64,000 nt of DNA from Escherichia coli (GCF_003018235.1 NZ_CP027437.1), one strand, 5' to 3'; positions 12,888 through 33,375 are shown, numbered from the stretch's first letter. A program made the numbers and translations. Notes: generated from the sequence alone by a model not told the origin.

Positions 12888-14262
12888 CAGCCACACTGTT
12901 GACGACGGACTTTATCTGTTCGTCGGTGCCTGCACGGTTTCAGCCCCCGGAAGGGCTGCGTTCGGGGCTTCACCCCGTTCCCCGGCCTCAGGGTCGCGAT
13001 GCGTTTTCTGCTGCATGACCGTTCAGAACCTCCGTTGATACTCGTCACTCATTACCGTTCGGGCCTTCGGGTGTCATGCCCTACTATGCCCTCTGCTGAC
13101 TCCTGTCCGCCGGTCAGCGCCCCTTACGGTACGCTCAGTTCTGGATACAGAACGACGGACAGGCCTCCCGGGGTAAGTTCAGCTGCCTTCACCACACACC
13201 TGTCCGATTTACCACCCCGGTTCTTGATGGTTATGGCCTTCGCAATTCTTTGCTTGCTCCGCCAACCGGGTAGGCCTCGTATCGGATTTCTGTTCGTCAG
13301 GTCATGGATTTGCTTCACGCTTCCTTCAGACCCCGCTTCACGACGACGCCCTTGCGCTTCGCTAGTCCTTCGCTACCATCAGGCTGGACAGGGGACTTTC
13401 ACCCCCGAGCTGCTGAACATGCCCGGCACACAAAGAAAGCCCCTCCGGAGAGGGGCTGGTATGCGCAATGTTCCATCATCTGCATGGTGCCGGGTGCCTC
13501 CCGGTGAGTCCGGCATCAGCATCCGAACCCGCAATATTGCCCAAATAAAGCTAAAGGATGATTGTGACCTGCTGATTTGCCCCTCCGCACAGGGGGATTC
13601 ACCATGCAGACATTTTCTTAGCAAAATCACTGCGTGCCAGGCAACTCCCAACTACATAAAATGTGGAGTTTGTGGCATTTATGCACATAACTCACAGGAA
13701 TTATCTTAAAAAAGCTGACAGGGCTTCCCCGGCAACGTAATACCATCATTCCCTGAAATGACATCCCCGTATTATCGACAGGCTCAAAAAGGAGCCAGTC
13801 ATCTGAGGATGACTGGAAAAAGGAAAGATAAAAAATTATTCATCATACAACCTTCGTTGCAAGGGAGAATCCTGCGGTGCAGCAACATACAAAAACATAA
13901 GCCAACTAACAATATGCAGGCATAGCATTTTCGGATTTTGTTATATGGCACGGCAACTGAATGCTCACCTGATATACAGTCCGGTATAAAATTGCAAAAA
14001 AAAACGCCAGTTAAGGCGGCATTTAAACAGATAACAGGATTTTTTCGTAATTTCAACAACGTCGGGGTGGCGCATCGTCAGTCCCTGTCAGGAAGTACCA
14101 GCACTCCCACCAACAATGCACCACCCCATTCAGCGTTGTAAAACACGGCACAGGAACTATCAATGTTTTCTGTTACAGTTCGGGAAAAACGATAAACACG
14201 CCACGGGCTCTTTTTGCTGTGAATTAAAAACGGTCCTGAAAGCCGGCTCATCATTTTTTACT

Positions 14263-14339
14263 GGACCGTCACCGGGGACTCGAACCCCGCACTCTCAACA
14301 TAAAAGGTTGATGCTCTTTCCTGATGAGCTAGTGACGGC
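14263..14339 (-). tRNA. phage-encoded tRNA, anticodon read as UUU (Lys-type loop CUUUUAU); identity uncertain
   Basis: 77-nt cloverleaf with 7-bp acceptor stem CCGTCAC/GTGACGG, T-arm CGGGG-TTCGAGT-CCCCG, CCA end. Confidence 0.55.
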
Positions 14340-14340
14340 A

Positions 14341-14416
14341 TGGTGGCCCTTGCTGGATTTGAACCAGCGACCTGGCGGTTATGAGCCGCTCGCTCTCACC
14401 ACTGAGCTAAAGGGCC
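14341..14416 (-). tRNA. phage-encoded tRNA with CAU anticodon, ileX/ileZ-like (tRNA-Ile2 or Met)
   Basis: 76 nt GGCCCTTTAGCTCAGTGG...CTCATAA...GGTTCAAATCC...CCACCA; close to E. coli ileX as I recall it. Confidence 0.8.
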
Positions 14417-19661: not shown

Positions 19662-20490
19662 GACGATGCCCTCCGTTGATATTCAGGAGACGGTGAATAT
19701 GAAAATTAGCCTTATCCGCCAAACGAATACGTTCAGCCTGCAAGTTAAGAAGTGTTTCTACCAGAACCTGATGCGCCTGCGGATCCGAAAGAGTTACCTT
19801 GCGCAGAGCACGTAGTGCAGTTGTTACATAACTGAGTTTATGTAAGTCTTCATCATTCAGACGAGTGAGGGCTGGGACAGTAGCCATGATGGCAGCCTCC
19901 TTGATCGGTGAAATACTTCCACCACCGGAAACGCCAATTTCGCTGGTGGTGAACTGAACGGGGTTGGCGTAACCGGTGATCAAGGAAACCGGCGCATCTT
20001 TCGATGCCCCCGCCCAGCCCACCATAACTTTGATGTGAGCAAATGCGGACGATAAAAAAGACGCTGGCGCGTCATATATCGCCTTGATCAATTCCAGGAC
20101 GCCAATCCCGGCACCCGCTTTATAAGGTGCCTGAACAGTGTAACGTCCCGGAATGGCAGAATCAATGTGCTGGTGGTCCTTCACACTCAACAAAATCACG
20201 CCTGAATTTCCACAAAGGACTAAAGCACTCATGCGGGTAGTCTTTGCGAAGATAGATAACGCGCTGTGTTTCTGGCTCCCAACGAATAACATGGACATAA
20301 AGCCCTCTTCCGTCACGAAACCAGCGGTTAAGTTCCTGCACAACTCGCCCCCCACAGTCAGGTAAAGTTCTCTGTGGTTACTTACAGCCAGGTGATTTGG
20401 TAATCTGCATTCATGCCGTAACAACAGGTGTTCAGCGACGCTGACCACCAGCTGTTGCGACAAACGGTTATTTGCCGTTAAACTGTTCAT
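19654..20490 (-). CDS. hypothetical protein (278 aa)
   Basis: long coherent ORF in early-right operon; family not recognised. Confidence 0.5.
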   Translation of the reverse strand: MNSLTANNRLSQQLVVSVAEHLLLRHECRLPNHLAVSNHRELYLTVGGELCRNLTAGFVTEEGFMSMLFVGSQKHSALSIFAKTTRMSALVLCGNSGVILLSVKDHQHIDSAIPGRYTVQAPYKAGAGIGVLELIKAIYDAPASFLSSAFAHIKVMVGWAGASKDAPVSLITGYANPVQFTTSEIGVSGGGSISPIKEAAIMATVPALTRLNDEDLHKLSYVTTALRALRKVTLSDPQAHQVLVETLLNLQAERIRLADKANFHIHRLLNINGGHRHA

Positions 20491-21324: not shown

Positions 21325-21420
21325 CGGTAGTTAAGTTGTTACGAGATGCAAGAATACAACATTAACAACTTTTATCACAACTTTTAGGTGTTGGAAAGCT
21401 AAAACATAAAGTTGTAACCT
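21325..21420. promoter_or_regulatory. OR-like operator/promoter region between cro and cI
   Basis: repeated AAGTTGT / ACAACTT half-sites and ACAACTTTTAGGTGTTGG motif. Confidence 0.5.
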
Positions 21421-21444: not shown

Positions 21445-22131
21445 GTGAAAACACTGGCAGAACGATTAAAGATAGGTAGAGAGAAAGCTGGCATGAGCCA
21501 AGCTCAACTAGCTGAAAAAATTGGACTTTCACAACAATCTGTAGCCAAAATAGAGAATGGAGAAACTCTACAACCGCGCAAAATTAAAGAAATTGCAAAA
21601 ATTTTAGGTGTATCACAAAAGTGGTTACAACTTGGTATTGAAGACAACGCATCCATACCTGATCTTGTTGTAAAAGAAGCAGAAAGCACCGCATTAGACC
21701 CCGATATTTTCGTAAACATTCCTGTTTTAGATGTCGAGTTATCGGCTGGTAACGGATGTCTGGCTGAAATAGTTGAATCAGCTATTGACTGGTTTCCGTT
21801 AAGAAGAGCAGATTTGAGAAAATCTGGCGTATGTGCATCTAATGCCAAGATCGTAAAAATCTGGGGGAACAGTTTATTACCGGTTCTCAATAATGGAGAT
21901 CTTGTTGCCGTTGATATTTCTCAAACCGTTCCTATTCGTGATGGCGATCTTTATGCCGTACGAGATGGTGTATTGCTAAGGGTTAAAATACTTATCAACT
22001 TACCTGACGGTGGCTTGATTCTTAGAAGCTTCAACAAAGATGAGTACCCAGATGAAATACTCACCTTTGAGGATAGACGAGCCAGAATTCATGTTATAGG
22101 TAGGGTATTCTGGTCATCGCGAACTTGGTAA
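21445..22131 (+). CDS. CI-type repressor (HTH_XRE plus S24 LexA-like peptidase domain)
   Basis: N-terminal HTH MSQAQLAEKIGLSQQSVAKIENGE; C-terminal GNSLLP ... RVK; GTG start after GAGAGGG RBS. Confidence 0.85.
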   Translation: MKTLAERLKIGREKAGMSQAQLAEKIGLSQQSVAKIENGETLQPRKIKEIAKILGVSQKWLQLGIEDNASIPDLVVKEAESTALDPDIFVNIPVLDVELSAGNGCLAEIVESAIDWFPLRRADLRKSGVCASNAKIVKIWGNSLLPVLNNGDLVAVDISQTVPIRDGDLYAVRDGVLLRVKILINLPDGGLILRSFNKDEYPDEILTFEDRRARIHVIGRVFWSSRTW

Positions 22132-22653
22132 TGCGTCGAAAAGCATTTCTTCAGAAATAATTTTAAGTTTTGCACCATTATCATCCCGATAAGATATAGC
22201 CTTTTCGATCTTCCTTCCGTGACTTGAGAATTTCCAATCACGGGAGGAAAGCGTCCCTATTACTAAAAAATCCAACTTTTGAGTAATTCCACTACTGATG
22301 TTCCCACCAGCATTTTTAATCAAATTTTCAACTACGGCTCTCTTTCCTGCAACAAAAGTGCCTGTAAGACAATAGGTTTTACCCTCTAACTCTATCGAAG
22401 CCCCTACATCAATAGGCAGCCTGGTCGCCAAACCATCCACCACCCCACTTTCCAAGTCACATCCAGTGAAGTCTACTAATGCCTTATGTAGAGTTAAACT
22501 CTCATCTTCAGTAATAACACCATCTTTAAGAATTTCCTTTACAAGTGCATAAAGGTTTTTTCCTGGGTAGTTGTTCCTCAAAGCTCCATTTTGCTCAAGC
22601 CACCAATTAAGATATCTTATTTCTTCTTGAGTTAAGTTTCGATCAGCAATTAA
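22114..22653 (-). CDS. in-frame continuation after TGA: two TerB-like motif copies plus C-terminal BRCT-like domain (no ATG; TTG at 22581)
   Basis: frame open from the TGA at 22654-22656 to 22114; LIADRNLTQEEIRYL and ILKDGVITEDESL motifs; BRCT-like GKTYCLTGTF...DFLVIG. Confidence 0.45.
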   Translation of the reverse strand, partial: LIADRNLTQEEIRYLNWWLEQNGALRNNYPGKNLYALVKEILKDGVITEDESLTLHKALVDFTGCDLESGVVDGLATRLPIDVGASIELEGKTYCLTGTFVAGKRAVVENLIKNAGGNISSGITQKLDFLVIGTLSSRDWKFSSHGRKIEKAISYRDDNGAKLKIISEEMLFDALPSSR

Positions 22654-23004
22654 TCATTTACATAGTCCATTAAGTAAATGGACATCTACATCTTTGGAGT
22701 AAAAATCAATTTCAGGGATATCAAGAATTTCTCTCTGTATTTGAAGAAGGCTATTTTTAAGGTCATCACGTTCTTCTGATGTGATTATTCCATCCGCAAG
22801 AATATCCGATACCCGTGCTGATAGACTTTTTATAACTCCATTATTGATAATCTGCTTTGCTTCAAGTAACCATGTATCTAAGTAAAGAACCTCCTCTTCA
22901 CGGACAACTCCATCTGCAATGATTCCATCAATGATGCTAATCAAGTTAGCAAATAACTTGTCCCGGTTCTGTGTGTAATTAAAAGCGTAAAGCGCGTCTT
23001 CCAT
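22654..23004 (-). CDS. TerB-like repeat protein (116 aa), ends at in-frame TGA
   Basis: ATG 23004 with AGGAGG RBS; two copies of I-[IL]-A-D-G-[VI]-x-x-E-E motif. Confidence 0.6.
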   Translation of the reverse strand: MEDALYAFNYTQNRDKLFANLISIIDGIIADGVVREEEVLYLDTWLLEAKQIINNGVIKSLSARVSDILADGIITSEERDDLKNSLLQIQREILDIPEIDFYSKDVDVHLLNGLCK

Positions 23005-23060
23005 ACAACCTCCTTTTTTTGATAATCCTTGCACTCCTTGACTACACGTTCAAACTACAT

Positions 23061-23115
23061 AAAGTTGTTGACAACATTCAAAACAACAACCAGATTACAA
23101 CTTAAAGGTGTTGAG
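23061..23115. promoter_or_regulatory. OL-like operator cluster
   Basis: AAAGTTGTTGACAACATTC palindrome-like site and ACAACTTAAAGGTGTTGAG, matching the OR motif. Confidence 0.45.
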
Positions 23116-23184
23116 ATGACGAACAGGCAGGACGCCCACGAAGTAGCCGTCTGGGGCATATGAAGTCCAGGATGATTCGTTAGC

Positions 23185-23215
23185 AACAAAAAAGCGCCCT
23201 ATAGGACGCTTCGCT
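23185..23215 (-). terminator. intrinsic terminator after periplasmic-protein gene
   Basis: minus-strand AGCGTCCTATAGGGCGCT followed by TTTTTT. Confidence 0.45.
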
Positions 23216-23237
23216 CTTTAACAATCTGGATGACTTA

Positions 23238-23750
23238 TTACTCAGATTTGAACTTTGGTTCTGGCAAAAGAGGAGGAGTTGAGTCCTCGAATCGTAGCCA
23301 GTGCTCCCAGATATCGTGGGATTGTAATTCCAGAAGACCAATTTGACGTGATGCAACTGCAGTGCCAGCTATAGTTCCTCCTGCATAATCAACCTGGACG
23401 GACTTTGACGCTTTCTCAATTAATTCTGTCCAAGCTTCACTTTCCGCGTTAAAAGAAGCAGTTAATTCCTGCAGACGCTGTGGATCATCCTTGTTGTCTT
23501 GTTTCAAACGATTCAGGGCGGCCACCGAATACTTATTCTTAACCCAGCTAACCTGAGCTAACTGAACTCTCTGACAAGCGTCCATATCAGTAGTTGTTTC
23601 CTGAGGCATATCAAAGCAGGAAATAAAAAAAGTCTCAACACCATCATTTAGACTACTGCTCGGCTGGTTCAAAGCATCAGAAGCATTGGATGCTATCGGT
23701 ATTATCAGTGCTACCGACAGAATCAAACGTTTAACATAAATCGCTCCCAT
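23238..23750 (-). CDS. secreted/periplasmic protein (signal peptide; possibly DUF1311/LprI-like)
   Basis: ATG 23750 with GAGGGG RBS; N-terminal signal peptide; two Cys. Confidence 0.5.
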   Translation of the reverse strand: MGAIYVKRLILSVALIIPIASNASDALNQPSSSLNDGVETFFISCFDMPQETTTDMDACQRVQLAQVSWVKNKYSVAALNRLKQDNKDDPQRLQELTASFNAESEAWTELIEKASKSVQVDYAGGTIAGTAVASRQIGLLELQSHDIWEHWLRFEDSTPPLLPEPKFKSE

Positions 23751-24218
23751 TTAATTATCCCCTCTAAGAACAGAGTCATCCAGATTATCTGAATCCTTGT
23801 TGTTGGGGAATAACCAGGCCCACCTCGCCTGATGTGGCTAAAAGCAGGCACATAACAGCTAAGTATTTTCAACCAGAGAGAATCCTTAGCGTTGTGGTGA
23901 ATGCGGCTCAGCGCACGCGGGCTAAGGTTGAGGCTGACAGTCGACCTTCTGTGGATACCCACCCGCCTGGTGTGCAACCTTCGCCAGGCACCGGGAGGCA
24001 CCCGGCACCACAACTTTATGCTGTGTATAGTCCTGGCGGTACCAGTTTGTACCCTTGCTTCCGGCTGGTACCGCTCTTTTTACAAAACAGAGAAGAGCAT
24101 CACCGGACGACGGGCTCATAACCCAATCCACCCGGGCGGCTGCCACCGCAGGTGTTCTTCTCTGTTTTGTGGAGAAACCAACCGACCTTGCAGGGTCGAT
24201 ATGATGAGGAGCAGCAAA

Positions 24219-24581
24219 ATGGCTAGCGAACGCAGTACCAACGTGCAGGAATTTATCGTAGAACTGGACGGCGGCGTATTTGAAACTAAACTCGGCGCAG
24301 TTCTCAGTGAAGTCGCTTCCGGTGTGATGAACACGAAAAACAAAGGTAAAGTCTCGGTCAATCTGGACATCGAACCGTTTGATGAGAACCGTGTAAAAAT
24401 CAAACACAAACTCTCATATGTTCGCCCGACTAACCGCGGGAAAATTTCTGAAGAAGACACCACCGAAACGCCGATGTATGTCAATCGCGGTGGTCGCCTG
24501 ACTATTCTGCAGGAAGACCAGGGACAGTTACTGACTCTTGCCGGTGAACCTGACGGAAAACTCCGTGCAGCAGGTCGTTAA
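24219..24581 (+). CDS. YfdP-like protein (120 aa)
   Basis: AGGAG RBS; first gene of a yfdPQRST-like block as in CPS-53. Confidence 0.55.
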   Translation: MASERSTNVQEFIVELDGGVFETKLGAVLSEVASGVMNTKNKGKVSVNLDIEPFDENRVKIKHKLSYVRPTNRGKISEEDTTETPMYVNRGGRLTILQEDQGQLLTLAGEPDGKLRAAGR

Positions 24582-33052: not shown

Positions 33053-33139
33053 GCGAAGGTGGCGGAATTGGTAGACGCGCTAGCTTCAGGTGTTAGTGTC
33101 CTTACGGACGTGGGGGTTCAAGTCCCCCCCCTCGCACCA
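33053..33139 (+). tRNA. leuV: tRNA-Leu (CAG)
   Basis: 87-nt GCGAAGGTGGCGGAATTGGTAGACGCG...CTCGCACCA; first of three identical copies (copy naming tentative). Confidence 0.9.
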
Positions 33140-33167
33140 AAAACCACGTTGATATTGCTCGCACTGG

Positions 33168-33254
33168 GCGAAGGTGGCGGAATTGGTAGACGCGCTAGCT
33201 TCAGGTGTTAGTGTCCTTACGGACGTGGGGGTTCAAGTCCCCCCCCTCGCACCA
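33168..33254 (+). tRNA. leuP: tRNA-Leu (CAG)
   Basis: identical second copy. Confidence 0.9.
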
Positions 33255-33288
33255 AACGAGGCGATATCAAAAAAAGTAAGATGACTGT

Positions 33289-33375
33289 GCGAAGGTGGCG
33301 GAATTGGTAGACGCGCTAGCTTCAGGTGTTAGTGTCCTTACGGACGTGGGGGTTCAAGTCCCCCCCCTCGCACCA
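33289..33375 (+). tRNA. leuQ: tRNA-Leu (CAG)
   Basis: identical third copy. Confidence 0.9.

Follow-up and report, generated by a model that had tools for sequence, protein, structure and literature searches.

Introduction

The best described counterparts of the gene treated here are proteins with an LprI (DUF1311) domain that act outside the cytoplasm. Mycobacterium tuberculosis LprI (Rv1541c) is a lysozyme inhibitor according to the account of Sethi 2016 given in PMC7933661. This protein is lipid-anchored as a lipoprotein and carries an MliC domain besides (PMC7933661), and it may be this MliC domain, rather than the LprI domain, that inhibits lysozyme. In enterohemorrhagic Escherichia coli (EHEC), the DUF1311 protein Etsi4 neutralizes the periplasmic effector Etse4, rescuing the cells (PMC12981562), and signal-peptide-bearing LprI-domain proteins of Pantoea have been predicted to be orphan immunity proteins, with homologues that follow lysozyme-like type VI secretion system (T6SS) effectors (PMC9796082). 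The periplasmic ScwA of Salmonella, which has two disulfides, controls the levels of MltD, reportedly without effect on lysozyme resistance, and lysozyme inhibition is accordingly doubtful as a trait of the whole family (PMC7933661). The common thread of LprI, Etsi4, the Pantoea proteins, and ScwA is that of a partner of peptidoglycan hydrolases in the periplasm.

Phages provide a second frame of reference, in their morons and in genes for superinfection exclusion close to the immunity region, among them lambda rexAB, sieB, bor, and lom, and T4 Spackle. The last of these is a small periplasmic phage protein that blocks the tail lysozyme of an incoming phage.

Here we analyze a 170-codon gene in the early-control region of an E. 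coli prophage. Throughout, the window denotes the whole stretch of 64,000 nucleotides that was analyzed (NZ_CP027437.1 of GCF_003018235.1). The gene occupies an exchangeable cassette and is predicted to encode an exported, divergent protein of the DUF1311 fold. It has the family-naming domain in common with M. tuberculosis LprI, as well as an extracytoplasmic location, predicted in the case of the prophage protein; unlike LprI, it has neither an MliC domain nor a lipobox directly after the hydrophobic core. It differs from the T6SS immunity proteins (Etsi4, the Pantoea LprI-domain proteins, and TsiV3 of V. cholerae) in that no effector gene adjoins it. With ScwA it would share the character of a horizontally acquired, low-GC, disulfide-stabilized periplasmic LprI-domain protein of an enterobacterium (ScwA features from PMC7933661), whereas ScwA is encoded chromosomally between ybaP and copA, is 275 aa long with two disulfides, and regulates the level of MltD. 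Like these phage genes, the prophage gene is accessory, is dispensable to the phage, would be furnished with its own signals, is located beside the repressor and PL, and is expected to be expressed from the prophage; unlike sieB or rexAB, it lies antisense inside the PL leader. No relation in sequence or fold to rexAB, sieB, bor, lom, or Spackle was found.

Table 1. Features of the locus, numbered from the first letter of the window
Feature	Coordinates	Strand	Basis
cro	21309-21061	-	early-control region
cI	21445-22131	+	early-control region
BRCT-domain gene between cI and OL, pseudogene in the window (TGA codon 117, base 22656)	22114..23004	-	GGA to TGA
OL-like operators with PL (TTGACA at 23068, 17-nt spacer, CAGATT)	23049..23113	+	operator repeats, promoter scores
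Conserved 5′ PL leader: hairpin and boxA-consensus GCTCTTTAACAA (23213-23224)	23114..23229	+	conservation, promoter position
Intrinsic terminator for the transcript from the cassette, within the shared left flank	23181..23212	-	9-bp stem (5 G-C pairs), 4-nt loop, T-run
Left inverted-repeat arm AATCTGGATGACT; outer 7 bp AATCTGG common to all cassettes	23223..23235	.	repeat scan, alignments
Exchangeable cassette, 550 bp	23230..23779	.	homology to SfIV, strain 961, and strain 99E2750 ends at 23229, restarts at 23780
Gene for the DUF1311/LprI-like protein of 170 aa (coding sequence with stop codon)	23238..23750	-	ATG start; ORF list, phrog_7681, dN/dS, AlphaFold2
Predicted Sec signal peptide, codons 1-23 (K7, R8; LILSVALIIPIA; SNA/S)	23682..23750	-	hydropathy, -3/-1 rule
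Shine-Dalgarno GAGGGG, 8 nt 5′ of ATG	23759..23764	-	read from sequence
Right inverted-repeat arm AGTCATCCAGATT; outer 7 bp CCAGATT common to all cassettes	23774..23786	.	repeat scan, alignments
Best candidate promoter TTCCCC-17-TAATCT, in the flank common to all cassettes	23782..23810	-	weight-matrix scan, 7.9 bits
STnc100/PasD-like structured RNA element with hairpin and U-run end	23861..24083	+	match over the full length of the Rfam model RF02076; E 2e-8, 44.5 bits (gathering score 47)

An exchangeable cassette inside the PL leader

The locus lies in the early-control region of a lambdoid prophage of the SfV/SfIV/e14/CPS-53 type (Table 1), with a ymfL/cII-like gene on the minus strand alongside cro. 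Half-sites of the form ACAACTT/AAGTTGT occur in the operators between cI and cro and again at 23049-23113, where PL scores 11.7-12.4 bits in promoter scans. In five prophages, with three other immunity or repressor types, a promoter precedes the start of homology at 23114 by the same distance, and the block 23114-23229 can for this reason be read as the 5′ end of the PL transcript. This transcript runs rightwards through the cassette and on to yfdP, yfdQ, and yfdR, then xis and int. The boxA match in the leader, (C)GCTCTTTAACAA, is exact, occurs once in the window, and is kept in all related loci, including that of Klebsiella. On the PL strand, 23191-23224 comprises the hairpin of the cassette terminator followed directly by boxA, with the cassette border 7 nt further on; hairpin and boxA together look like an rrn-type nut-like site. 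On the early-right side, a search for a nutR counterpart to this boxA found none. The 170-aa gene lies within this leader in antisense, 7 nt past the boxA-consensus sequence; in kind, it is an ordinary cargo gene of a prophage.

Across a six-locus alignment, the left flanks are identical through ...CTCTTTAACAATCTGG and the right flanks from CCAGATTA... onward, and the inserts between them are unrelated: the DUF1311-like gene in the window and CFT073, a 144-aa gene of the ECs1072 family in SfIV and strain 961, and a 171-aa Zn-ribbon-like gene (CxxC...CxxC) in 99E2750 and 19AR0656. All three unrelated cassettes are on the minus strand and have the same flank terminator and the same upstream flank. 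The slot borders form a 7-bp inverted repeat, AATCTGG/CCAGATT, which extends to a perfect 13 bp in the cassette of the DUF1311-like gene; a 12-bp core of it, ATCTGGATGACT, is perfect in a Klebsiella variicola prophage also. Homology to SfV ends further out, at 23181, and restarts at 23820, and SfV carries a plus-strand gene, orf33, at the slot. In strain 755, where this prophage is integrated at the same chromosomal site, no gene is annotated between cI and yfdP; its PL leader is of different sequence as far as 24034, and an Rfam search of this alternative leader, tried as a possible STnc100 relative, returned no match. In the Klebsiella prophage, the slot between cI and yfdP is occupied by an orthologue of 71% identity. 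The gene occurs alongside at least two immunity modules, sometimes accompanied by the BRCT neighbor and sometimes not.

These alignments suggest that the slot is a hotspot of cargo exchange and that the gene is a prophage moron, replaced or missing in otherwise collinear prophages. The first-pass annotation had already likened the gene to a moron of the lysogenic-conversion type; the finding of a different gene, or none, at the same place in such prophages agrees with a moron, while lysogenic conversion is putative. The same annotation had put the gene just outside an OL-like cluster; that it adjoins the immunity region and its operators holds, and the position can now be refined to the inside of the PL leader, in antisense. 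The GC content of the gene (43-45%) is the same as that of its surroundings, and base composition is thus uninformative as a mark of a moron. Counted across different E. coli prophages, unrelated cargo genes at the slot number at least three.

Transcription signals

Since the gene is antisense to PL, PL cannot express it, and it needs a promoter on its own side. An automatic promoter scan found no minus-strand promoter for the gene, and no convincing sigma-70 promoter emerged. The best candidate from the weight-matrix scan (Table 1) scores 7.9 bits, about the local top 0.1%, as against 11.7-12.4 bits for PL; all of it falls within the shared right flank, and its RNA start would fall a few bases inside the cassette. 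Its TAATCT and some 70 nt upstream are nearly invariant between E. coli and Klebsiella, with a coding dS of about 1.6, and this conservation could equally fit service to the divergent STnc100-like element. In the same comparison, the noncoding flanks are better conserved than synonymous sites, and the ribosome-binding site and the flanking signals are conserved.

At the other end, the terminator scan delimits a hairpin at 23212..23191 on the minus strand, followed by the T-run TTTTTTGTTG. Folding gives −16 kcal/mol (z −2.2) on the gene strand, as against −8 kcal/mol (z +0.2) for its complement; the terminator is thus one-directional, and of moderate strength. It is common to the other cassettes and kept in Klebsiella. 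A strong terminator had been claimed for the gene: its canonical hairpin and T-run are there, the strength proves moderate, and the element, though it serves the gene as the terminator of its own that is expected of a moron, belongs to the shared flank of the slot.

A genuine gene with a predicted export signal

The 170-aa reading frame is a genuine gene, beyond chance: the protein matches phrog_7681 over 170/170 positions (E 1.2e-120). The dN/dS ratio is 0.106 against the Klebsiella orthologue and 0.108 against the Enterobacter orthologue, synonymous sites being saturated in both comparisons, and a value of about 0.11 points to purifying selection. Weak Rfam matches across the gene (a Phe leader and snoRNAs) were set aside as noise.

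The precursor begins MGAIYVKR-LILSVALIIPIA-SNA|SD, with two positive charges, a 12-residue hydrophobic core, LILSVALIIPIA, of Kyte-Doolittle hydropathy 2.7-2.9, and a small-x-small site. A heuristic of n-, h-, and c-regions (not SignalP) predicts that signal peptidase I would cut at A23|S24, a site of the textbook type. The S/A-x-A motif is retained in 13 orthologues despite differing hydrophobic cores, and a hydrophobic N-terminal segment is present in 69/81 aligned family members. In the AlphaFold2 model, pLDDT per block is 59-64 over residues 1-20 and 81 over residues 21-30. Taken together, the dN/dS ratio of 0.11 and the conserved cleavage site imply that selection acts on the protein.

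Given the predicted Sec signal and no lipobox right after the hydrophobic core, the product most likely ends up in the periplasm and not outside the cell. Lipidation was considered and rejected: F-I-S-C45 fits the lipobox regular expression but lies 22 residues past the hydrophobic core, and C45 is the near-invariant first Cys of the family, present in at least 90% of 81 relatives. The first-pass description of a 170-aa protein with a signal peptide is thus supported by the reading frame, its ribosome-binding site, the heuristic prediction, and the conserved S/A-x-A site; its word "secreted" is apt for the predicted export signal and less so for the destination, release from the cell being the less likely outcome. 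Its two Cys are exactly that, C45 and C59, and its suggestion of a DUF1311/LprI-like protein was right, the relationship being a remote one, as the next section details.

A divergent member of the DUF1311 fold

A Pfam scan of the protein by itself gave no family at E <= 0.001, PF07007 (LprI/DUF1311) scoring 17.3 bits (E 0.0062) and missing the gathering threshold of 22 bits; NCBIfam gave no match, nor did the PADLOC models at E <= 0.01. Its relatives are more readily placed. A phmmer search of 1.84 billion representative proteins returned 140 at E <= 1e-3, 17 of them at E <= 1e-10, and 75 of 81 aligned relatives are positive for PF07007 (best E 2.8e-19). The family profile, in turn, finds the DUF1311 crystal structure PDB 3gi7 (E 1.6e-5), and in this alignment each of the two Cys falls on a Cys.

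The AlphaFold2 model, built with the alignment of relatives as input, has a mean pLDDT of 91.8 and a pTM of 0.82. It contains three long helices (53-85, 90-121, and 128-152), the three-helix fold of the solved member 3gi7, together with a beta-hairpin at the N-terminus (31-43) and a strand at the C-terminus (164-169). Foldseek against the PDB places 3gi7 on top, with probability 1.00 and a target-normalized TM of 0.77-0.80, yet an E value of only 0.3; against the viral structure library BFVD it found nothing significant. The structure searches agree on the fold, from which we conclude that the protein is, as far as profile and model can tell, a divergent and remote member of the DUF1311 fold.

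Its departures from the family are specific. Compared with the PF07007 members 3gi7 (P. putida PP0307) and YecT, the prophage protein is sub-threshold, has lost the second Cys pair, and adds the N-terminal hairpin and the C-terminal strand, the latter with the subfamily motif DSTPPxLPEP. Four Cys occur in 53/81 relatives and two in 8/81, the latter including aligned enterobacterial and prophage relatives. To YecT it has no detectable pairwise or profile similarity; comparison with YecT and with Etsi4 by BLASTP and by hhalign showed none, and the protein is not orthologous to either.

A 42%-identical chromosomal relative in Rahnella woolbedingensis (L021, 7076-10159) lies between cutC and a cmoB-like gene, a position akin to the yecT region of E. 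coli (cutC-yecM-argS-yecT). Its placement hints that the phage gene may derive from a chromosomal family of the YecT region.

Distribution and genomic context

The gene is present in 145 of 5426 complete E. coli genomes, including UTI89 and CFT073. These copies are at least 99% identical in 144/145 cases and cover at least 80% of the gene in 143/145, and many of the carriers come from human (including extraintestinal) or poultry sources. APEC O1, S88, IHE3034, and NU14 are other strains carrying the region. The flanks are more widespread: at least 80% of the left flank, 23114-23229, is found in 1094/5426 genomes, and at least 80% of the right flank in 1813/5426. A tblastn search of 50,697 sequenced phage records found the gene in none. 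The identical protein occurs on at least 1000 public contigs, always under the name "hypothetical," and a literature text search for the protein accessions or the PHROG number returned no mention.

The surroundings of relatives were surveyed in an 80-locus neighborhood search that used the narrower alignment of relatives and whose positive control worked. Within 8 kb, neither T6SS core genes, Etse4, or Etsi4 (0/80 loci, in 80 species) nor SfV-type early genes (0/80) were found. Neighbors sampled included ABC transporters, an L,D-transpeptidase (in Pantoea), umuDC, and cutC with cmoB. Among distant relatives, one adjoins a repressor and a lysis-gene remnant, a second is on a contig that also bears a weak match to a Rep3-type replication protein, and a third adjoins a lipoprotein and an ABC-transporter operon. 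In the window itself, where a T6SS immunity gene would have a cognate effector or a T6SS island adjacent, the neighbors are a BRCT pseudogene and an RNA element.

Possible functions

Upgrading the annotation from hypothetical protein to exported DUF1311-like moron product is well supported, and is not a surprise. What such a product would do for the lysogen calls for a more cautious account. The slot is at the head of the PL operon, set between the PL leader, with its hairpin and boxA-like sequence, and the STnc100-like RNA element. The candidate promoter TTCCCC-17-TAATCT would drive the gene, and the shared terminator would end its transcript some 85 nt before the inferred start of PL. Because CI keeps PL silent, the geometry leads one to expect expression in the lysogen; after induction, head-on transcription from PL would presumably oppose the gene. 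The 170-aa precursor would be exported by Sec and cut after A23, leaving a soluble periplasmic protein of about 147 aa, predicted to combine a divergent DUF1311/LprI three-helix fold and one disulfide, C45-C59, with a small beta-sheet formed by the N- and C-terminal extensions. If the family is a guide, this protein would bind, and most likely block, a lysozyme-like peptidoglycan glycosidase, for which the candidates are the lysozyme in the tail of a superinfecting phage, a muramidase that a competitor uses as a type VI effector, and host lysozyme; blocking such a hydrolase would protect the cell wall of the lysogen.

Our confidence in this account varies with its parts. Taken whole—a moron cassette with an exported DUF1311-like product that is expressed in the lysogen and protects it by binding or inhibiting a hydrolase—we hold it tentatively, at somewhat less than an even chance. 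That the protein binds or inhibits a lysozyme-like enzyme stoichiometrically, protecting the lysogen, is an argument by analogy that we regard as possible but doubtful. A more pointed version, in which an "immunity" protein with the DUF1311 fold, periplasmic and stand-alone, on only in lysogeny and antisense to PL, would shield lysogens from a peptidoglycan-degrading weapon (T6SS muramidase, tail lysozyme, or host lysozyme) out of a plug-and-play slot with shared promoter, terminator, and borders, strikes us as rather unlikely. Counted against the explanation are the sub-threshold Pfam score, the absent second Cys pair, and the failure to find a strong promoter, and likewise the lack of a T6SS link, of similarity to Etsi4 or YecT, and of a PADLOC match.

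The protein might instead, in the manner of ScwA, modulate the peptidoglycan hydrolases of its own host, tuning the level or stability of enzymes such as MltD or Slt, and with them cell-wall homeostasis and the release of wall fragments, and not blocking a foreign enzyme. The analogy is drawn from a horizontally acquired, periplasmic, disulfide-stabilized LprI-domain protein of Salmonella that controls MltD levels and virulence (PMC7933661), and it accords with chromosomal relatives that sit among housekeeping genes, one of them by an L,D-transpeptidase gene in Pantoea. ScwA, however, is a protein of 275 aa with its domain at the C-terminus and two disulfides, and a role in cell-wall homeostasis would leave unexplained why the slot is shared with unrelated cytoplasmic cargo genes; we consider such a role unlikely. 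Binding of a hydrolase for the protection of the lysogen is the reading we prefer.

Two further possibilities would assign the protein little or no part, and both seem to us improbable. The slot might act mainly in cis, antisense transcription damping leaky early-left expression and stabilizing lysogeny, with the protein secondary. The gene and PL are indeed convergent, with an overlap of about 600 nt in the PL leader, the three unrelated cassettes have a common orientation, upstream flank, and terminator, and the noncoding flanks exceed synonymous sites in conservation between E. coli and Klebsiella. Yet a dN/dS ratio of 0.11 and a conserved cleavage site bespeak selection on the protein, and with the SfV cassette on the plus strand and strain 755 devoid of a gene between cI and yfdP, antisense transcription is evidently not obligatory. 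Alternatively, the gene might be silent cargo, an intact but unexpressed hitch-hiker without present function in a largely vertically inherited prophage. Such a state would suit the weak promoter candidate, a protein that every source names "hypothetical," the near-identity of the E. coli copies (144/145 at or above 99%), which fits recent clonal spread, and the neighboring BRCT gene, already a pseudogene in the window; it is at odds with purifying selection across genera, with the 143/145 copies that cover at least 80% of the gene, and with the conservation of ribosome-binding site, cleavage site, and flanking signals.

Should the preferred reading hold and a hydrolase be neutralized, a common prophage of UTI89- and CFT073-like strains would supply a ready-made shield against competitors, phages, or innate immunity, and the uncharacterized phrog_7681 would gain a function. 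The slot itself, whose leader, upstream flank, and terminator are conserved and occur in at least 1000 genomes of E. coli, takes interchangeable cargo at a 7-bp inverted repeat, which makes it a convenient place to seek new prophage genes of host benefit or defense.

Other elements in and around the window

The STnc100-like element is divergent from the gene, forms the right bound of the slot, and lies in the PL leader before yfdP. Its core, UGGUGAAU...CACCGGGAGGCACCCGGCACCA, is conserved, and in the absence of antitermination the element may end PL transcripts. The stretch is found in 1813 of 5426 E. coli genomes and has been annotated as a "frameshifted hypothetical protein" or, in strains 8FA and J53, as "ymfH." A 226-aa reading frame, 23901-24581 (plus strand), annotated as SfIV gp34, comprises yfdP (about 24219-24581) and an Arg/Cys/Pro-rich N-terminal extension across the RNA element; the extension is probably not translated. 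Within the element, the 11-mer ACAACTTTATG (24010-24020, plus strand) is the exact reverse complement of CATAAAGTTGT, which occurs in both operator regions (21405-21415 and 23058-23068), one copy about 30 nt before the cI start codon. The 11-mer may represent a distal operator or an sRNA seed directed at the cI leader, or the match may be due to chance.

The BRCT gene is intact in strain SCU-124, where it encodes 296 aa (phrog_3989) and gives a weak match to the PADLOC candidate PDC-S48 (E 3e-7). It is apparently divergent from PL, and promoter-like sites overlap the operators.

A strong STnc100 copy (134 bits) lies at 13426-13637 on the minus strand, beside pieces of a group II intron (Rfam, 13062-13347 and 9609-9681). 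This copy and the intron pieces are on the strand-downstream side of tRNA-Met and tRNA-Lys genes (14262-14416), the whole stretch spanning 9609-14416 on the minus strand, and by alignment with strain 755 it adjoins a prophage antitermination (Q-like) gene. On the early-right side, a C4 antisense RNA (82 bits) and isrK (64 bits) stand side by side at 19942-20130 (minus strand), 3′ of the ymfL/cII-like gene; the pair is an antisense immunity module of the P1/P7 type within a lambdoid early-right region. Three tandem tRNA-Leu(CAG) genes at 33053-33375 (plus strand) belong to the host chromosome past the integrase end, where alignment with strain 755 gives the order rsmC, three tRNA-Leu, yjjZ, and fhuF.
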